NCBI GenBank assembly: GCA_035221665.1
Contig: CM069131.1
Span: 92,070,001-92,134,000 of the forward strand
Reading direction: 5' to 3'
DNA from: Okamejei kenojei
Taxonomy: Eukaryota
DNA length: 64,000 bases
Shown here: piece by piece, positions 8,815 through 20,747 of the stretch
Layout: each line of letters begins with the position of its first letter
Numbering within the stretch: the first letter of the stretch is position 1
The notes under the pieces: model-generated
The model's input: the letters and a program-made list of their open reading frames with translations, nothing else
What the model was told of the DNA's origin: nothing
Databases searched by the model: none
Program-made: the position numbers and the translations under genes

Positions 8815-9160
8815 GGGTGGCACAGCAGTGCAGCCAGTGGAGCTGTTGCCTCACAAGGATAGAGAACTGGGTTCAATCAGACCTCATATAGTGTTCGTGT
8901 GGATTTGCATGTTCTCCCTATGACTGCATGGATTTCCTCCAAGAGCTCTATTTTCATTCCACATCCCAAAGATGTGTAGGTTGGTAGATTAATTGGCTGC
9001 TCTAAACTACATCATGGATGTAGGTGAGTGGCAGAATATCGGGGTAGTTGATGAGTGGAGAATACAAATGGGATTAGTGTAGAGTTAGTATAAACAGGTG
9101 ACTTATGGTTGGAACAGATTATGTGGGTTAAAGGGCCTGTGCCTGTGCTGTATCTATGAC
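8815..9160 (+). mobile_element. Older V-SINE
   Basis: Diverged tRNA head, V-domain, AAGGGCCTGT tail. Confidence 0.7.
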
Positions 9161-9844
9161 TTTCCTTGTGTATATTATTTATGGAGGTTATATATATTTC
9201 TTATTTTTACCAAGGTATCTCTTCGTACTGTATACATCAACAATGGCTCTAGCATCCATTTCCAAAAGTCAAATTAGCCATGTCGGTGTTAAAAAACAAA
9301 TTCAAACATATTGGTTAAAGTGCTTCACTACGTGACTTTAATGATAGTTTTCTTGCTGTCTTTACTGATCTTCCACACTCCCCTCATGATCTAGCTGAAC
9401 AAAAATGTTATTGGATCGAAACTCTGCAGGGATATAACCTGAAGTAGAATGACGTGGGATTATTCCCCAGTTGAGCAAAATGCAACTAATCATTGTCCTG
9501 TTATTAAGTTTGAACACTGTTGAGAATTTGAGAATCACATCTTGGACAATCTTTATTGATCTCCACACCTTGCTATTTGACGTGGAATGATTTGGTGAAA
9601 TAAACAACGTGAATGCAGTCAGATAAAAGTAAGTGAAATCAAGTATCATAATCCAAAATCAGTTCAGTTGAGATATACATGTCAATTCTTTGGTGGTGTG
9701 CGGTCACAGTATTTAACATAATATGAATCAATTTTGAGTGGCTAATTGTGAATATTAAGAGGATGTCAAATCCTTTCTCACAATGAGCAACATGAACTTT
9801 TTGGAAATATCCCATTCGTCATTTCCAGTTTGTGAGAGTATCTT

Positions 9845-10138
9845 AGAATAAAGGGGAGGTCATATAAGACTGAGGTGAGAAAAAACGTTTTCACCCAGAG
9901 AGTTGTGAATTTATGGAGTTCCCTCAGAGGGCAGTGGATGCCAAGTCACTGGATGGATTTAAGAGAGAGTTAGATAGAGCTCTTGGGGCTAGTGGAGTCA
10001 AGGGATATGGGGAGAAGGCAGGCACGATAGGTTATTGATAGGGGACGATCAGCCATGATCACAATGAATTGTGGTGCTGGCTCGAAGGGCTGAATGGCCT
10101 CCTCCTGCACCTATTTTCTATGTTTCTATGGTTCTATA
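9845..10138 (+). mobile_element. CR1 LINE 3' end
   Basis: TTTTCACCCAGAGAGTTGTG, GATCAGCCATGATC, (TTTCTATG) tail. Confidence 0.85.
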
Positions 10139-10389
10139 TCTTTACTGGCTTGATTTTGCAATCTGGAGAGATCATGATCAATATCTTCATGTAAACCAGT
10201 TGTGAAATAAAATGAATCGCAAAAGAAAAATGTCTGCCAGTGCTGGAAATCTGAAAGAAAATGCTGAACTATCATATTGTTATTTCCTTCATGTTTGTAC
10301 CACCAACATGTTCAGCTTCAAGCTTTCAAAAAAGGTATAGTTTCAACACATTTAACACAACTCTGTTCCATCAACAACAGTAATAATGG

Positions 10390-10565
10390 TAGGCAGACAC
10401 AAAATGCTGGAGTAACTCAGCGGGACAGCTGAGTCTCTAAGAAGGGTCTCGACCCGAACCGTCTCGACTCAACCCTTCTCTCCAGAGATGCTGCCTGCCC
10501 TGCTGAGTTACTCTAGCATTTTGTGTCTACCTTCAATTTTAACCAAGATCTGCAGTTCGTTTTTA
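10390..10565. mobile_element. Palindromic Penelope-derived repeat
   Basis: AGACACAAAATGCTGGAGTAACTCAGC / GCTGAGTTACTCTAGCATTTTGTGTCT arms; degraded AAGAAGGGTCTCGACCCGAACCGTC core. Confidence 0.7.
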
Positions 10566-12936
10566 CAGAGTAATATTGGTAGGGTCTCTTATCCTTATTC
10601 CAATATTTATTTGATTCAAACCCTCCTTTTATATAAATATATAAGAGAATAATATGACAATCTGCATTACAAAATTAAAACTAAACATTGACTGTTTAAT
10701 CTGAAGATGATGCATTCATACTCATCCTACATACTCTCTCATGAAACCCTGATAATGCATCTGCAATTGCATTTTGTTTAAAACTTCCATACTCAATTGT
10801 GCAATCTTATTGAGAGAAGAATTATCTTCCTTTGGAATGTCAATGCAGCCAAAGTGGGTTTTGCAGACTTGAGACCAGGAATTGGCAGACTTGTGTTCCG
10901 TGACTAAGATAAAAGATAAATGATTGATGAGACTTTTTCTCCCAAAAGCAATTTCTAATGCTGCTTTCTTAATTTGATTCTAAATATGTTTGTTCTTCAT
11001 CAATGTGCATATTGTATACTCACACATTTTATTCTTGACTGGTACCCATTATATGACAATTAACAGGTCCAACTCCATAGCTCCAAGCATCTCATGCAAA
11101 TTTCAATGAACATATTTTAAGAAAGTTAAACTGTCAAAGATTCACTTCCAAATTCCTCAAATACCTTTTGGTATTCTTTGTTCCAATTCCATTTTGCGTC
11201 TTTCTGACAGGACTGACAAAAACTTGGCATGTTATTGTACCATGCCCAAGAATGATCGACATTCTGAAATCTTTTCAGGTCTTGTTGCCAGTACACTTTT
11301 GTTTATTTCCTGATTGATTGCAATCCTTTTGCATCTAATTTGGTCTTGATAAACTGCCAGTTTTTCTATAGATGCACATTTCGTTTGAATTCACGTACAA
11401 CATGATATTTGCTTGAATATTCAAGCCTTTTCTGCTTTAACACTGCTAGTGATTGATACATTATCATAGATTCACATGCAAATACAATGTACTATGTTTA
11501 CATATTCTGTTGTGCTGCTGCAAGTAAGAATAAAAATTGTTCTATCCAGGTCATATGACGATAAAACATTATTGACTCTTGACTCTTAATGGCTAGCTAG
11601 TGGTTCTTTGAGATTGCAAATTCAAGGCAGAAAATACACCTTCTGCAATGAGTGTTAGCATGAGATTTCAACCCCAATGCATTGTAGCATGGAAGTAAGC
11701 AAAGGGCAGGAGGTTAGGTGCAGATGGATCCATCCTCCTGTGCACACCCTGGATACTGAATTCAAAGGTAGTTTATAATGTGCTCTGGTGAGGACTGCAT
11801 TGCTTTGTTTGTATCTGGCCTCTTAGTTTTATCTTAATAGGGCATCATTCATTTGAATGGGGTTACTCACTGACATTCACCACAAAGGCAAGTGAAAGAG
11901 TGAAGATTTTTGATTCCACTCTCATATGATTAATCCCAATGTGAATAATTTGAATGAGGTTGTATATTTATATTAATATTATTAATTTGTTAATTGTTAT
12001 GAAGGTTATATTTTTGAATTATTTAAATATTACTCCACTGTTTCCTAATGTTTCTTTTCAACAGAAACATTAGAAAAGTGCTTCGCATGGCAGAGAAATT
12101 AAACAAGTACTTTGTGATTCCAAAAGCATCTTGGAAATCTTAGACAATTAAGGAGAGTGAAGGAGTGAAGATTTTATTTTCACTCTCATTTGATTAATCC
12201 CAATGTGTTTAATTTGAGTGTGGTTGTACATGACATTAATATTATTATAATATTAAAAGCTTCTTAAATGCCAATAGGGTACCACATTAGAGGCTTACCA
12301 GCAAAACGGTAGCACATTGTATAAAAGGGACATAGATAGTCTGGGTACAAAGTTGGTGAAGTAACAGATGGTCGTGGTGAATGATTGTTTCTCAGATTGG
12401 TGGAAAGTGAATAGTCATTAGGATTTCCCAAAGATAAACCAGCAATCTGATTTCTAAATTTGAGATTAAATTAAAACTCGACAGCAGTACTGTTACTGCA
12501 ACAAAAAAAGCAGCAGGATATTAAAAGGGTGCTGGAATAGGCAAACATGCACACAAGGTTTAGGACTGTAGAATTACTTTGATAGAGTGAACAAAGAAAG
12601 GCAATACAAAGTCAAAAAAGAATTGCAGGAGCAGAGGAATCAGTGGATGTGGGTCAGGCACGTGCTGTGAGTGATTACCACCCTGACGGCACATGCCGTG
12701 AACAATTACTCAAGGTAAGCAGTCAATCGGCTTTAAAAAAATCTTAAACCGCACATGCGCAGATTGTTCTCCTCTCCGTAAATATAAAAATAACAATTCA
12801 ATTTGCCCAAGGCTTCCAAATCTCCTTCATTCTGAATTACTGAATGGGTGGGGGGTGGAGGGCGAGGGCAGGTGGAGAGAAGATGGGAACAACGGGATCA
12901 CACCGGGACAAGTTGAATCAGTTGCGAATCAGTGCG

Positions 12937-14993
12937 AATCTGGCACCAGATCCAAGCAGCTAAGAAGGACAAGAGAGACCTACATGTGATCTTCCTCGAT
13001 CTGGCCAATGCATTTGGTTCAGTTCCCCATGAACTCCTTTGGGAATCTTTTGCCTTTTTCCATGTACCAGAGCTCATCACCACACTGGTCAAGAACAATT
13101 TCCAAGACCTGCAGCTGTGCTTCACAACAGCTGAATTCAGTACAACATGGCAGCGCTTGGAAGTAGGCATCATGGCAGGCTGCACAGTCTCACCCTTGGC
13201 CTTTACAATGGCCATGGAAGTCATCATCAGGGCCTCAGAATGGGTGGTGGGCGGTGAACGAACCAGTGCTGGGCTCCGTCTGCCACCCATCAGGGCATAC
13301 ATGGACGACATGACAACAATAACCACTACTGCAGCATGCACCAAGCGGCTACTTGGAAAGCTGCAGGAGAACATCAAGTGGGCCCGAATGAAAATCAAAC
13401 CAAGTAAGTCTCGAAGCATCTCCATAGTTAAGGGGGTGCTTAGAGACACAAGGTTCTGCATCGGTGACGACCTAATACCAACAGTGTCTGAGCAGCCAGT
13501 AAAAAGCCTGGGCAGATGGTACAACGCAAGTCTCAAGGACAAAGAGCAGATGCAACAACTAAGGCAAGAAATTGTCAACGGCCTGGAGAACATCAATCAG
13601 ACCCTACTGCCTGGGAAGCTGAAGCTCTGGTGCCTACAGTTTGGACTCCTTCCTCGGACAATGTGGCCACTGACCGTTTATGAAGCCCCAATAACAACTA
13701 CGGAGAAGATGGAGCGAACCATAACTTCATACGCGAAGAAATGGCTTGGTGTCCCACAATGTCTAACTAACATCGGCCTCTATGGCAAAGGGGTCCTGGA
13801 ACTACCTCTCACTAGTCTAACAGAGGAATACAAGTGTTCCAAAGTAAGACTCCAGATGACACTAAGGGAGTCTAGAGACAACACCATCAGTGCTGTTGCG
13901 CCGCCCCTAGTAACTGGCCGGAAGTGGACACCATCTGATGCAGTACAGCAAGCTTCATCAGCCCTGAGGCACAGAGACGTCGTGGGGCAAGTGCAGCAGG
14001 GAAGAGGAGGCTTTGGCCTTACGACAAGTAAACCAACTTGGCAAAAGGCCACAACATCAGAGCGGAGGACATTGGTGGTTGAGGAGGTGCGGCGACAGGA
14101 GGAGGCCGCAAGAAGTGCAAAGGCGGTCTCTCTTGCCAAACAGGGGCAATGGATGCAGTGGGAAGGTGTGGAGCGGAGGAAGATCAGCTGGAAAGAACTA
14201 TGGGAAATGGAATCAAGCAAGATCAGCTTCATCATCAGAGCGACATACGACATCCTTCCATCACCAAAGAACCTCAATCAGTGGTACGGCGAGGATCCAA
14301 CCTGTGCCCTCTGCCCAACTCCAGCGACCCTCAAACACATCATGGTAGGCTGCAAGACCAGCCTCACACAAGGGAGATACACGTGGAGGCATAATCAGGT
14401 ATTTAAAAAGCCTGGCAACAGCCCTTGAGAACAGGCGGTGTGCGACCAACTCCTTGCCTCCGAGAGCAAGCAACCCCTCCCACTTAAGGGCGACAACCTT
14501 TGTCCGAGAAGGACAGAAAACACCTAAACATCCTTCCACCAGATCAGAAGAAGGAAACCTATGCAGGGCCCGTGACTGGAGGATGCTGGCGGACATCGGC
14601 CGACAACTAATCTTTCCACCTGAAATTGCTTCAACCAACCTCAGGCCAGATTTGGTGTTCTGGTCCCTTTCACAGAAGACTGCTTACATCATAGAGCTCG
14701 CAGTTCCATGGGAGAACTCTGTTGTGGAGGCCTTTGAGCGTAAGAAGCTGCGCTACACAGAGCTTGCAGCAGAGGCAACGCAGCGTGGCTGGAACACCAA
14801 GGTTTATCCAGTTGAAGTGGGATGCAGAGGATTTGTTGCGTCATCTACCATCAGACTGCTGAAGGAGCTTGGAATCCATGGTCAGGCTCTGCGGAAGACC
14901 ATAAGATCACTCTCAGACGCGGCTGAAAGAAGCAGCCGTTGGATTTGGCTCAAGCGGGAAGACCCATGCTGGGCCCCAAATACGTCATGGTGA
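12937..14993 (+). pseudogene. Hero RT-RLE polyprotein, one frameshift
   Basis: ORFs 12932-14428 and 14454-14993 join into one frame (RHNQVLKSLATALENRR) if one T is removed from TTT at 14402-14404. Confidence 0.88.
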
Positions 14994-15011
14994 ATTTTTG
15001 AGGCAGTTTGA

Positions 15012-15132
15012 CACAGGACACGCGCTGAGGGCTGATCATCCTGCAGCGGGCCGCCCTTGTGGAGGGTGTATAGTGTTAAAAGGCCGAAACACGCAGTGAT
15101 GCAAGGGTACACTACTGATGATGTGTCCTGTG
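15012..15132 (+). ncRNA. Candidate non-circularly permuted hammerhead ribozyme in the Hero 3' UTR
   Basis: GTA 15068-70, CGAAAC 15085-90, CTGATGA 15115-21; stem I TAGTGT/ACACTA; stem III GGGTGT/ACACGC; extra helices CCCTTG/CAAGGG, GGCC/GGCC and CACAGGACAC/GTGTCCTGTG. Activity untested. Confidence 0.6.
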
Positions 15133-16374
15133 CCCAGCTGTCCTGAAGGTTACCCAGGCCAAGATATACGTATACGTACCCCCCCCCCCCCCCCCCCCGC
15201 CCCCCCCGATGTTGAGCGTCTACCACTCTCAGCAATCAATGAATGTCGTGAAATGCTCCCCACCTACTGGCACAAGGGACTTCTTAACATCTTGTCCTGT
15301 GTATTTGATTCTGCGATCAGGTGTGAATTCCGTATTAAATGTACCGCGCATGAAAGGCACGGAGAATTATGCCTACCTAAGAGATCGATCTCCTAGGTGG
15401 GCATCATTCTCCCGTGCCTTTACTATTTATATTTAATAATTATCATTTTATAATTTTAGTCAGGGTAGGCAGTGCCTACCTTGCCTACCCTGACGGCATG
15501 TGCCGTAACATGGGTGTACATGTAATTTAACATGGCAGGTCAAGATGCAAAAGCATTAATAAGGCATCTACAATTTTAGATTTTAATCAATGGAAGCATA
15601 GAGTATAAAAGCATGGAAGTCGAATTCAGGTCAGGCTTCAACTGCATTAGTGTACTCAATTCTGGTTGCCTCAGTGGAAGATAGTAACCAGAACTATTTA
15701 TGATAGTAAGGGTCCAGAACTATTTATGAGAATGGTTCCTGAGAGGAGGGACTAATGTAACAAGTTTATATTAAAAAAAAGGCCGGGATTGTTGTTTTAT
15801 TTTTATGCAGTGTTGTTGGAATCTGGAATGCATTGCCTGTAGATCTGGTGAAAATATTTTCATTTTCCAAAGGGAACTGGATAAATGTATAGTGAGCATA
15901 ACTTAACAAAGCTACAGTGGGGGAGGGTGGGGTGGATCTAGTGAGTTGTTCTGGTTAGATGATGGCACAGACTCAAAGGGCTAAATGGAAGAGACCATGT
16001 TGAAATCCATTCTACGATATCTGTCATGTCACTATTCAAGAAAGCAGAAAACTATTGACTTGGTAATTTTACATTTGTCATCAGAACAAAAAGCCAAAAT
16101 TCATTATAAAATAGGTAACAGCAGTACATTTAGAAAAATCATGAGGCAGTCATGCAGAATCAACATTGTTACCGTACATGAAAGGTAAATTATATTTGAC
16201 AAACATTCCTTTGCCATTTAAAATCAGAGTGGATAAAGGGGAACCAATAGATGTGGTGAATTTGGATTTCAAAAAGGCATTTGATGAGATGCTGCATATA
16301 TGTTATTGCCACCATTTAAGAGTGCATAAGGTTGTGAAGAATATAATGGTATGGTTAAGGGAGTGGCACTAATG

Positions 16375-18176
16375 TAACGATGTTACAAAACTTACCGCCT
16401 GCGGCGCTGCAGTTCTGCCACTGGCCGTGTGCGTGTCTTTGGCGCCTTTAGGGTGGGGGGGGGGGGGTTTGAGATTAAAATCCAGTTTTCTACTGCCTGT
16501 CGAAGGCGGATTTCCTCGGGCTACTAGCTGCTGAAGGAAAATCGATTGGACTTTCGTTTCCGTTTTTTTTTCAATCGCGAGACAATTTAATAATTAGATT
16601 AAAATAAAAAGCGACTTCTAATGCCCTCAACGTGAGTGATTGCAAGAATGGGACAAAACAAGGGGTAAGTCGTATATTTTACATATAATCTTGCTTCTTG
16701 GGATGGCTTCAATCTAATTTTACGTTGCGAAAATGTGATTTGGGCCGCAAACGAACCAGCAGTGTATTTCCTGCCGATATGGAGTTCAAATTCACCGCAA
16801 ATGCAACGTTCCAATCAATCGTGTTCCAGGAAAACCCACTCGCAAGATGATTTAAATGCTCTTATTTTTGGACAATCATGTCATAAGAGCATCTAAATCG
16901 TCTATATTTTGTGTTATTGTCTATCCATAGTCAATATTCAGTTTTAGTCCCATGTATTGTGCAAAAAAATAATAATTTTGATTATATTGAGTGGATGTTT
17001 CTAGATTAATTTATGGGAATTAAACATTACATTCCATCCATCTGGCATATAAATTCACGACAGTGAGATTTAAAAATCATGTTATATCGTGAATTCTTGT
17101 GTGAATGGGATTAGTTTGTTATTTGGATACTTAGAAACAACATAGAAACATAGAAATTAGGTGCAGGAGTAGGCCATTCAGCCCTTCGAGCCTGCACCGC
17201 CATTCAATATGATCATGGCTGATCATCCAACTCAGTATCCCGTACCTGCCTTCTCTCCATACCCTCTGATCCCCTTAGCCACAAGGGCCACATCCAACAG
17301 TGACTTAAATATAGCCAATGAACTGGCCTCAACTACCCTCTGTGGCAGAGAGTTCCAGAGACTCACCACTCTCTGTGTGAAAAAAGTCTTTCTCAGGATA
17401 CTTAGGCTATTTTAATAAAATATCCTTTTCTTAAGAAATGCAATCTACAGGACATTCTTAATGGAAAGTAGTGTGCAGAAAGGCATGTCATGTGTGGTTT
17501 GAAGAGCAAAAACTTGTGGTTTACAATGCCAAAATTGAAAAGTTGAGGAAAAACAAGGTGTACAGTTGCTTATTGGTTACAATCTGAGGAGTATGATGAT
17601 GCTACTGATTATGATATGCCAATGTACCAGCTAACAACTGATCTTCTCCATAAAGACTTGGTCTATTGCTAGAAATTGTAATTTATTTACCTATCTGTTA
17701 CGGACTTACGGCATAAAATACAATAATATTAAAGTTCTGATCTTGAGAATATCACATTTTTGAATTTTCAAGGCAGTCTGTGTGTTAATTACTCTTTCCG
17801 TCACAACGGTCAATTTTGTAATTAATTACAATTAGGTAATTAACTAATTACATGCTTTAATTTCAGGTCATCCAAGTAAGATGTTTTATATTTGTTTCAT
17901 AATGCTTCAGTCTATAATAACTGAAAATGTAATTCAGTTCTCTTAATTTTTAAGAAAGTTATGAGCTTTTGACTGTCCTCGATCACAGTGTTAAGTCAAT
18001 GGAAAAGCAATAGGGAACAAGATGCTCATTTCCGAGTATGAAATTGGCTATAACTTTTTTAATACTGAAGATATGAAAATGAATTAGGTGTCAAATTAAA
18101 CTGCGTTTTATACTTTATCTGATGGGATAAATTGCAGACTTGATTTTTAAAATCTCAAATTGTTGTAACATTGCTA
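16375..18176. mobile_element. Non-autonomous TIR DNA transposon with 7-bp TSD
   Basis: Ends TAACGATGTTACAA / TTGTAACATTGCTA; ACTAATG at 16368-16374 and 18177-18183; interrupts a decayed CR1. Confidence 0.7.
17135..17395 (-). mobile_element. CR1 3' end with 10-bp TSD
   Basis: GGATACTTAG at 17125-17134 and 17396-17405; (CATAGAAA) tail. Confidence 0.9.
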
Positions 18177-18535
18177 ACTAATGGGTTACTAATGGGAAAC
18201 ATAAAGTTATGAATATATGTTTAGATTGGCAATCACTAACTTGGAAATTCTGCAAGGTTCAGTGCTAGAACCTCAACTATACAAGATCTATTATGATAAC
18301 TTGAAAGAAAAAAAAACAAATGTACTGTGGCCAGATTGGCTGATGATCCACAGTAGGTGGGCTAACAAGTTGTGAGAAGCACACAAAGAGCCATAGAGAT
18401 GAATACTTAAGTGGAGTGAGACAAACAAATGTAGTGAAAGGAAAGGATATGTGGGGTGCTAAAACATGGAACACAAAATGTTAGCACCATGTGCCACAGC
18501 AGAAAGCTCCTCTTCAGTGGTGCTGCCTGATCCGT

Positions 18536-18823
18536 TTAAGAATAAGGGGTAGGCCATTTAGAACGGAGTTGAGGAAAAACTTTTTCACACAGAGGGTTGT
18601 GAATCTGTGGAATTCTCTGCCTCAGAAGACAGTGGAGGCCAATTCTCTGGATGCTTTCAAGAGAGAGTTAGATAGAGCTCTTAAAGATAGCGGAGTCAGG
18701 GGACATGGGGAGAAGGCAGGAACAGGGTACTGATTGTGGATGATCAGTCATGATCACAGTAAATGGCGGTGCTGGCTCGAAGGGCCGAATGGCCTACTCC
18801 TGCACATATTGTCTATTGTCTAT
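18536..18823 (+). mobile_element. CR1 3' end inserted in a Penelope-derived repeat
   Basis: FFTQRVVNLWNSLP peptide; (TATTGTC) tail; Penelope arm on both sides. Confidence 0.85.
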
Positions 18824-19324
18824 TGAATTACTCCAGCATTTTGTGTCGATCTTTGGAATGAATCAACATCTGCAGTTCCTTCCTATACAAACAAGTTAGC
18901 TTACGGGTGCAGCAAATAATTAGATTGGTTCATTGAAGACTGATGAAATGTTGGCTCTTATTAAAGGGGTGCAGAATATGAAAGTCAGGAGGCCTTGATG
19001 AACATGTTTACAGGGTGGTTAGTGAGAGCCCAGCTTCTTCATATTTAAGGAAGGATATACTTGCTTTTGGAGGCGGCACAGAAATGGTTGATTAAATTGA
19101 TGAAGAGGTTGATATAAGAAGAAAATTTGAGTAGTCCAAACCATACACTTCAGAGTATGGAGGAATGAGAGGTGAAAAATTTTGATTCAGAGGACAATTG
19201 AATGAGAGGTGAAAATTTTGATTCAGAGGACAATTGATGTTGAGAGGATATTTCCCCTAGAGTGGGAATCAAGACTGAGGGGCCATGATTTCAGAATAAA
19301 TTATTACCCATTTTAGGTGGTAAT

Positions 19325-19614
19325 ATAACCATATAACCATATAACAATTACAGCACGGAAACAGGCCCTCTCGGCCCTTCCAGTCCGTGCCGACCATTTG
19401 TTTTCCCCTAGTCCCATCTACCCGCACTCAGACCATACCCCTCCATTCCCTTCACGTCCATATACCTATCCACTTTACTCTTAAATGTTAAAATCGATCC
19501 TGCCTCCACCACTTCTGCTGGAAGCTGATTCCACACAGCCACCACCCTCTGAGTAAAGAAGTTCCCCCTCACGTTACCCCGAAACCTCTGTCCCTTAATT
19601 TTCATGTCATGCCT
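19325..19614 (-). mobile_element. CR1/HER1 3' end nested in an older CR1
   Basis: (ATATAACC) tail, GNFFTQRVVAVWN peptide; TAAT on both flanks. Confidence 0.85.
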
Positions 19615-20747
19615 AATGTGGAGAAATTTCTCCTCTCAGAGAGATGCTAATCTTTGGAATGCTCTCTCTCAGGGAGCCATGGAGGTAGTCATTGAATATA
19701 TTCATAGTGGAGATGAACAGACATTTGAACTACAAGGATGCCAAGAAGTATGGGGAGAGATTAGAAAACGGCATGGAGGCCAATATATGATATTATTGAA
19801 ACAGTCACAATCTTATTAAATGATGGAGGAGGCTCGAGTGCCTGCTTTGTTTAGATCAGCTTATATTTCTATTTGTTATAGTTCTATCTTCTAACATTTC
19901 ATATGGTTTCATTATGGTTATGATGAGAAGGCAGGAGAATGGTGTTAGGAGGGAGAGATAGATCAGCCATGATTGAATGGCAGAGTTGAGTTGATGGGCC
20001 TAATACTAAACCTATTCCTTATGACTTTTTTTCAATTAAACTGCACACACTCTTTGGATAATGAAGGATCAAAATCTATTAATTATTTACTGCATTTAAG
20101 AAAATGTGAGAAACACAGTGAAAATAGTTGCATTCTGAGATTATAAATATAGTCCAAGATTTGCACGTAGTTATTCCCCATTTGATCCATCATTTTATAA
20201 GTGTGAAATGATCTCTGTTATAAATTAGAAGCTTTCTGCATGATTGCATTAAATATCCATTAGTGATCATTCATGCACGCAACTGACAGGAAATGCAGGT
20301 AGTGACTACATCACAGTAGCCTCATTTGCTCAAAGATTTATAAAGGATTTATAGAAAGGACATTTAGGCTCTGCAAATATCTTATTGCATGTTAATTACT
20401 TACACTTTTATGCAGCAGAAATATATCTTACAATATAATTTTATCAAGGGCGTGTAATTTAGAATGTGAATAGATGTGCCTCTCAACAGAAATTGTCTTT
20501 TGTTGTTAATATGAATCATAATCATACAGCATTGGTACAGATTCTTGAGTCCACCAACTCGATGTTGATCAGCAGGCACCCATTTATACTAATCCTGCAA
20601 TAAGGCCATATTTATTCTCTGCCAACTGCTCAGATTCTACTGCTCACCTAGACACTGGGGCAATTTACAACAACTAACAAATGTACCCAGCCACAGGAGC
20701 ACTCAAAGAAAACCTATACAATCACAGGGAGAATGGGGAAACTCCAC

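Follow-up and report, generated by a model that had tools for sequence, protein, structure and literature searches.

A non-circularly permuted, pseudoknotted hammerhead fold in the 3' untranslated region of a Hero-like retrotransposon of Okamejei kenojei

A stretch of 64,000 nt from Okamejei kenojei (GenBank assembly GCA_035221665.1, contig CM069131.1, positions 92,070,001 to 92,134,000 of the forward strand), called the window here and numbered from its first letter, contains a 5'-truncated copy of a Hero-like retrotransposon of the type without long terminal repeats (LTRs). The 3' untranslated region (UTR) of this copy almost certainly carries a hammerhead fold at 15012 to 15132. As a preliminary description of the locus had proposed, the fold is non-circularly permuted and pseudoknotted: its core is conserved in 56 of 68 homologous UTRs, and 19 of 21 base pairs covary. 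Cleavage in vivo between 15070 and 15071 is very likely. Probably, with less confidence than for cleavage, the ribozyme processes transcripts of tandem arrays of the element and gives rise to at least occasional RNA circles, on which reverse transcription would start internally. Both cleavage and circles are deduced from genomic sequence.

Conservation and covariation of the hammerhead core

Homologues were collected in a nuclease-domain scan of metagenome contigs, which yielded 80 loci with 36-82% protein identity, and two loci on genome contigs were added. At 68 of these 82 loci, at least 150 nt past the open reading frame (ORF) were available. Searched with at most one mismatch overall, a pattern of the core alone (CGAAA, then CTGANGA after 18-40 nt) occurs in 56 of the 68 UTRs, compared with 3 of 47 coding controls and none of the 68 reverse strands. 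Exact core matches occur in 43 UTRs and in neither control (0 coding, 0 reverse). In the scanned stretch of the remaining 12 UTRs the core was not found; at least four of them (L099, L104, L115, L173) match a sequence model at another distance or in mutated form. This sequence-only model gave 64 matches in 83 sources, every one on the sense strand. Four stems of at least 4 bp each are formed by 26 of 38 non-redundant core-anchored motifs, but by only 30 of 1406 combinations in which strands had been swapped between sequences.

For covariation, 29 of the 38 motifs were aligned with MAFFT. The other nine (L096, L112, L120, L136, L137, L143, L144, L150, L171) were mis-anchored, degenerate or unusually spaced. 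In the alignment, 92.7% of the paired cells can pair, compared with 68.9% after shuffling. Both-sided changes are seen in 19 of the 21 pairs of stems I, II and III plus the pseudoknot, a value that none of 500 shuffles reached, and no slid alignment register came near the score of the true pairing. On the protein tree, where 17 of the 21 pairs were included, true pairs account for 64 same-branch co-changes and re-paired columns for 12.2 +/- 3.4 (maximum 27 in 5000 trials).

The positions G10.1, G12, A13, A14, A15.1, U4, G5, A6, G8 and A9 are invariant in all 29 motifs, and C3 and U16.1 are each kept in 28. By contrast, N7 takes all four bases. At the cut-site position 17, A is found 11 times, U 10 times, C 8 times and G never. 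The motif thus contains CUGANGA with a free N7, GAAA with the U16.1:A15.1 pair and NUH, stems I, II and III at the core, G10.1:Y11.1, and a tertiary link between stems I and II provided by the pseudoknot. As far as the alignment tells, this conservation pattern is that of a catalytic hammerhead. Loss of the core or of stem covariation in homologous 3' UTRs, which had been named as the finding that would contradict the fold, was not seen.

In the window copy, all segments listed in the preliminary description are present: GTA, CGAAA, CTGATGA, the stems, the 15054-59/15102-07 helix, the hairpin and the closing stem. The single mismatch noted there in stem III is real and private to this copy: 15093 is G in the window, and C in 29 of the 30 best genomic matches. 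With the family's C, stem III consists of six perfect pairs. On its own, this one sequence is insufficient to establish the fold, because its minimum-energy structure without pseudoknots is unremarkable (z = -1.2), 15053-69 pairs as a competing hairpin, and Rfam hammerhead models gave no match at E up to 10 in the scanned region 9000-20000. The Rfam scan and plain folding were discarded as support, since neither can represent such a strand order. While the low z-score and the missing Rfam match would suit a chance arrangement of short motifs, the core counts, the swapped-strand stem test and the covariation, including the same-branch co-changes, remove this explanation; its probability is negligible.

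Two further features of the region were observed. Within 15053-15069, a local hairpin can form between the 5' strands of the pseudoknot and of stem III; this inactive fold could delay co-transcriptional cleavage. In the linker between stem III and the pseudoknot (15095-15101), a GA is conserved (27 of 29 at each position), perhaps for a tertiary contact.

A splinted break between A9 and G10.1

The strands follow each other in the order stem II 5', pseudoknot 5', stem III 5', cut site, stem I 5', short linker, stem II 3', GAAA, stem III 3', pseudoknot 3', stem I 3' and CUGANGA. The order GUA, C-GAAA, CUGAUGA given originally is right for the blocks. It does not, however, make a plain S-G-C arrangement (cut site, GAAA, CUGANGA): block C is split, with the stem II 5' strand upstream of block S. 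The core is therefore made of four strands, the chain is open between A9 and G10.1, and the motif falls outside type SGC.

In hammerheads, at most 1-2 nt are expected between A9 and the stem II strand (PMC10085705). Here, A9 is not followed directly by this strand; the backbone enters the closing helix P0 after A9 and comes back through a hairpin at G10.1. What had been entered as a caveat to the fold turned out to be one of its conserved properties. Among 31 motifs (seven of the 38 were excluded from this count), 24 splint the gap without a spare nucleotide, compared with 28 of 300 swapped controls. In these motifs, A9 is followed immediately by a helix and G10.1 preceded immediately by the end of a hairpin, and a single uninterrupted strand is the pairing partner of both. 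In the window, T15122 can pair with G15022, which means that the closing stem begins directly after A9 and is one pair longer than the 10 bp first assigned to it. A viroid hammerhead tolerates a single extra base at the same spot. Judged by sequence comparison, the A9/G10.1 gap is a conserved design feature, predicted to be bridged by two abutting helices.

The motif belongs to no described hammerhead permutation type. Eckert et al. (2023) arrived at six permutations on the assumption that CUGAnGA and the adjoining stem strands are inseparable (PMC10085705).

The loop of the hairpin preceding stem II (window 15032-15038) contains a palindrome of at least 6 nt in 13 of 31 motifs, compared with a mean of 3.8 and a maximum of 11 in 2000 shuffles, a comparison uncorrected for kinship. 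Most of these palindromes are TGATCA; the symmetric variants TGGCCA and TCATGA also occur. It is possible that the palindromic loop acts as a kissing loop joining two ribozyme copies.

Footprints at the predicted cut

A probe with a non-A base before 15071 found 17 matches genome-wide. Nine of these loci are structural and represent seven independent events ending exactly at the cut: two copies starting exactly at 15071, three deletions ending there (13, 27 and 58 nt, one with a 1-nt ambiguity) and two insertions there. The remaining eight loci have changes of one or two bases. Probes of the same design at control positions gave 0 of 8 structural loci at 15029 and 1 of 16 at 15100 (p 0.003 against the cut site; p 0.018 if strictly truncations and deletions are counted).

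In two arrays (L406 and L407), an identical deletion ending at 15071 is present in both units, and nowhere else among the 17 matches. The units of one of these arrays differ by 1 substitution in 1830 nt, those of the other by 10 in 643 nt. Such a shared deletion points to a circular RNA template, as it is expected when the junction of a circle closed at the cut is copied twice.

The 5' ends of partial copies that lie upstream in arrays show a step at the same place: at 15 of 90 junction loci (14 events) they fall into 15071-15121, versus 2 events in 15020-15070 (p 0.002). About two thirds of the upstream copies run seamlessly across the cut site. Several upstream copies begin in or near a C-run of variable length (15179-15207) that separates the ribozyme from the terminal hairpin of the element.

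Other candidate footprints were dropped. A step in match counts across the cut (905 matches 5' versus 1038 3') was not retained, as the 31 loci recognised by the 3' probe only were mostly point mutants, with only two starting in 15071-15078. An extra T at the cut in five loci was set aside because a control site has the same one-base doubling.

The footprints bear on whether the fold cleaves at all. A hammerhead-like but non-cleaving fold that serves as a binding site for the element's protein could be imagined, as A9 is not linked directly to G10.1, unlike in every ribozyme of PMC10085705 as far as the accessible text goes. It is improbable, however: it is precisely the catalytic positions that stay the same, in contrast to the variable N7 and stems, position 17 avoids G, the breakpoints mark the predicted scissile bond, and copies without half of the fold were still inserted. 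The last point also makes a role as recognition structure for the reverse transcriptase (RT), considered in the preliminary description, less likely.

Tandem arrays and the 3' end of the insertions

Insertions of the family have no poly-A tail and terminate at 15310-15313, which is 243 nt past the predicted cut. The preliminary description had already remarked that sequence is retained beyond the cut. Since insertions end there, the cut is not what defines their 3' end; of the processing roles suggested for it, action on read-through RNA of tandem arrays is the most likely.

In these arrays, units are joined head to tail at one fixed junction, with 233 exact junction matches versus 1184 exact 3'-end matches. 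Out of 251 unit starts, the first 30 comprise 28 that come after the tail of another unit and two that begin a few bases before the start. There is thus no sign of a natural 5' end at the unit start. In divergent relatives, two contigs (L100, L134) assemble as unit-length circles, and seven loci continue into the next ORF.

In the 30 of 46 arrays that were usable, with both ends found, minor alleles are common to neighbouring units at 119 of 173 informative sites, compared with about 12% between arrays. This holds on both sides of the cut (77 of 114 sites 5' of it, 42 of 59 sites 3' of it). Twenty-five array-private variants are present in both units, while 164 private variants are not shared. 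In two unrelated arrays (L031, L034), an identical 6-base stretch is absent close to the 3' end of the upstream unit.

Proposed cycle and alternatives

In the proposed cycle, an array would be transcribed across unit borders, and each ribozyme copy would cut by standard hammerhead chemistry, so that 15071 would bear a 5'-OH and 15070 a cyclic phosphate. In hammerheads, G12 acts as base and the 2'-OH of G8 as acid. The cut-to-cut monomer would contain the complete ORF as well as the 5' UTR and the old tail. Its ends would be held together by stems II and III, the pseudoknot and P0, so that rejoining would be favoured or the RT would cross the nick. When the RNA is co-folded by a method without pseudoknots, P0, the pseudoknot helix and stem III form across the cut. 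Pairing of the monomer ends through four helices would explain why the strand order was kept. The RT would start at about 15311, copy as its first 240 nt the 5' part of the RNA and then cross the cut site. By circling more than once, it may generate 5'-truncated single copies, partial tandems and multimers.

A wider proposal can be made only tentatively: that Hero-type long interspersed nuclear elements (LINEs) are an autonomous, clade-wide class with a 4-kb circular RNA, whose four-strand hammerhead clamps the ends for self-ligation, perhaps helped by the palindromic kissing loop, and whose insertion is a rolling-circle target-primed reverse transcription with an internal start.

Several points weigh against the array-processing cycle or the data behind it. 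The 29 rows of the alignment were picked from 38 motifs after the structure had been parsed, which favours structure. The events found with the cut-site probe are few and were classified after being seen. The 5' ends of upstream copies are spread over 50 nt and not placed at one base; starts at 15108 and 15115 are found repeatedly in terminal copies as well and may reflect stalling of the RT on the pseudoknot. Terminal copies have no step at the cut, where 5 of 78 loci (4 events) compare with 3 or more immediately upstream; 33 of the 78 loci were judged from probe matches and not aligned. For the difference between terminal and upstream copies, Fisher p is 0.04 (4/76 versus 14/89). This conflicts with a pure circle, as a circle predicts the same truncation pattern for the first and the second pass. 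In L031 and L034, the 6 nt are missing from the upstream unit only, and two other arrays (L343, L347) combine unlike haplotypes in their two units. Shared deletions and alleles could also be explained by local DNA duplication or gene conversion. Finally, insertion of a Penelope-like element in vitro was unaffected by mutation of its hammerhead, whose cut site also showed no RNA ends (PMC11167929). Because of the terminal copies without a step and the unit differences in L031/L034 and L343/L347, linear templates probably contribute, and some of the RNA pool probably consists of linear, terminally redundant molecules.

If linear RNA were the only template, the ribozyme would set just the 5' end. 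The RNA would comprise a tail piece, the unit and a tail with the downstream ribozyme left uncut, resembling R2 with its 5' hepatitis delta virus (HDV)-like ribozyme; longer tandems would come from uncut read-through or template jumps, and no covalent circle would be needed. This explanation is the most serious competitor, though unlikely overall. It accounts for the step at 15071 in upstream but not in terminal copies and for the tail differences between the units of L031 and L034, some copies could escape cutting through the competing hairpin 15053-69, and the R2 RT crosses between templates, as the title of one paper states. On the other hand, it would hardly yield an identical ribozyme-destroying deletion in both units of two arrays, it explains the 25 array-private variants shared by both units poorly, and the seamless passage of about two thirds of the upstream copies across the cut site also speaks against it.

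Removal of the element's own tail by the ribozyme, either limiting activity or ending read-through, with tandems arising separately by RT jumps from the RNA 5' end to the 3' end, has very little probability. A precedent is the hammerhead in the 3' UTR of mammalian Clec2, which lowers expression (PMC6765202), and terminal copies must indeed derive from RNA with the tail present. Yet fresh jumps should produce varied junctions and free-standing unit starts, whereas the junction is fixed and 28 of 30 starts follow a tail. The array-processing cycle with at least occasional circles therefore remains the preferred reading.

The element and its relatives

The features of the window copy are listed in Table 1. 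The family unit is about 3984 nt long, and the family is young and abundant: the 40 best genomic matches are 97-98% identical. While the ORF of the window copy is frameshifted near 14350-14430, intact homologues encode 1100-1200 aa in a single ORF with an RT domain and C-terminal restriction-like endonuclease motifs. The nuclease motif region has no Pfam match; its putative restriction-like character comes from a motif read by eye against the consensus.

Table 1. Features of the retrotransposon copy and its ribozyme in the window
Feature	Position	Strand	Basis or remark
Non-LTR retrotransposon copy, 5'-truncated	12938..15313	+	Aligned to full-length genomic copies from 12938 through to 15311-15317
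ORF piece with RT domain	12938..14428	+	ORF list; Pfam RVT_1, E 1e-17
ORF piece, putative restriction-like endonuclease motifs (PD..E..K type)	14349..14993	+	Stop codon 14991-93
Closing helix P0, 5' strand	15012..15022	+	Pairs with 15122-15132; geometry kept in 24/31 motifs
Hairpin stacked on P0, abutting G10.1; TGATCA palindrome in loop	15023..15048	+	Fold, junction geometry
Stem II 5' strand; G15049 is G10.1	15049..15052	+	G10.1 invariant 29/29
Pseudoknot helix linking stems I and II, 5' strand	15054..15059	+	Pairs with 15102-15107; both-sided changes in 6/6 pairs
Stem III 5' strand and NUH triplet (GTA 15068-70)	15064..15070	+	Predicted cut after A15070; genomic breakpoints at 15071
Stem I 5' strand	15071..15076	+	Pairs with 15109-15114; both-sided changes in 5/5 pairs
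Stem II 3' strand, G12-A13-A14-A15.1 (15086-89), stem III 3' strand	15082..15094	+	15086-89 invariant 29/29
Pseudoknot 3' strand, stem I 3' strand, C3-U4-G5-A6-N7-G8-A9 (15115-21)	15102..15121	+	Conservation, covariation
Closing helix P0, 3' strand, beginning directly after A9	15122..15132	+	Junction geometry
C-run, length variable between copies	15179..15207	+	Copy comparison
Terminal hairpin and fixed insertion end	15276..15313	+	Candidate reverse-transcription start signal

Named homologues come from fish, lamprey, lancelet and mussel, and the insertion flanks are varied, with no fixed target site seen. Hero elements are described from fish, lancelet and sea urchin (PMC9004415) and lack a fixed target. 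Host range and varied flanks are compatible with the Hero clade without defining it, and comparison with named proteins gave only distant L1 and R2 proteins. The name Hero-like is based on domain layout and host range.

Among viral contigs no relatives were found, and two stray contigs were matched among prokaryote genome contigs. One of these matches, from an uncultured Brevinema bin (L173), is a retrotransposon piece with intact motif and probably represents host contamination. The genome of O. kenojei contains a second, diverged family with the same motif (L269, L288). A terminal hairpin-like motif just before the insertion end is present in 8 of the 68 homologous UTRs, all from closer relatives, and in 0 of 68 reverse strands. 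Elsewhere in the window, a short frame at 18485-18733 presumably resembles the tail of a CR1-type LINE protein.

Comparison with known systems

If the fold is a ribozyme as predicted, its hammerhead topology is not among the six permutations so far considered possible, and its catalytic core contains a break splinted by helices. The split core explains why descriptor and Rfam searches miss it, which would imply many undetected ribozymes in animal genomes. It would also place a hammerhead in a LINE with a restriction-like endonuclease, where HDV-like ribozymes are the known case. Whether a retrotransposon is templated by circular RNA, which has up to now been proposed for Penelope-like elements and retrozymes, becomes testable through the footprints of the cut that the young arrays preserve. 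Proteins of the R2 family are under development for gene insertion; for this purpose, a relative able to start internally and to use circular templates would have practical value.

In the open-licence literature searched, no hammerhead was found in Hero or other restriction-like-endonuclease elements, nor one with a break between A9 and G10.1; the earlier statement that no report of such a fold was known for the 3' end of these retrotransposons agrees with this. A 2019 review names R2, L1Tc, schistosome short interspersed nuclear elements, Penelope-like elements and retrozymes (PMC6765202). Two works could bear on novelty: a survey that includes Hero elements (Fell et al., 2025, Nature, as cited in PMC13580325) and hammerhead variants with an 'additional helix' cited in PMC13725137.

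The nearest structural relatives are the type-SGC hammerheads (HRIMA-1; Eckert et al., 2023; PMC10085705). They share with the Hero-like motif the order cut site, GAAA, CUGAnGA, the pseudoknotted core, a short linker between stems I and II and an extra helix joining the other sides of these stems. In type SGC, however, the stem II strand follows directly after A9, whereas the Hero-like motif has it upstream of the whole core, with the gap splinted. Moreover, type SGC was found on metatranscriptome contigs near hairpin ribozymes, the Hero-like motif in animal retrotransposons; the supplement of that paper has no entry for Danio, Branchiostoma, Metazoa or HERO. The pistol-like pseudoknot hammerhead also has a core stabilised by a pseudoknot. 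There, a pseudoknot from a stem-loop replaces helix II (PMC11300833), while the Hero-like motif keeps stem II and has a non-circular order.

R2 resembles the Hero-like element in combining RT and restriction-like endonuclease in one ORF and in using a ribozyme to free the element RNA. Its ribozyme is HDV-like, located at the 5' end and acts on a co-transcript with ribosomal RNA (PMC13580325, PMC6765202). By contrast, the hammerhead of the Hero-like element lies inside the 3' UTR and is predicted to act on the element's own arrays, which occupy no fixed target site that could be seen. Retrozymes likewise consist of hammerhead-processed repeats that form circular RNA, and a rolling-circle route has been proposed for their spread. 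They are non-coding, depend on LTR or Penelope-like elements and carry type I or III hammerheads (bioRxiv 10.64898/2026.07.22.740005, PMC6765202), whereas the Hero-like element is autonomous and 4 kb long.

Penelope-like elements have a way of life similar to the one proposed here, with tandem or partial-tandem copies, one hammerhead per unit, an internal RT start and a proposed circular RNA (PMC11167929, PMC6765202). These elements encode a telomerase-like RT and a GIY-YIG nuclease and carry type I hammerheads in pseudo-LTRs (same sources). The Hero-like element has a LINE-type RT, restriction-like nuclease motifs and a pseudoknotted four-strand hammerhead, and its protein has neither the telomerase-like RT nor the GIY-YIG nuclease. 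It resembles a Penelope-type array cycle but is not a Penelope-like element.
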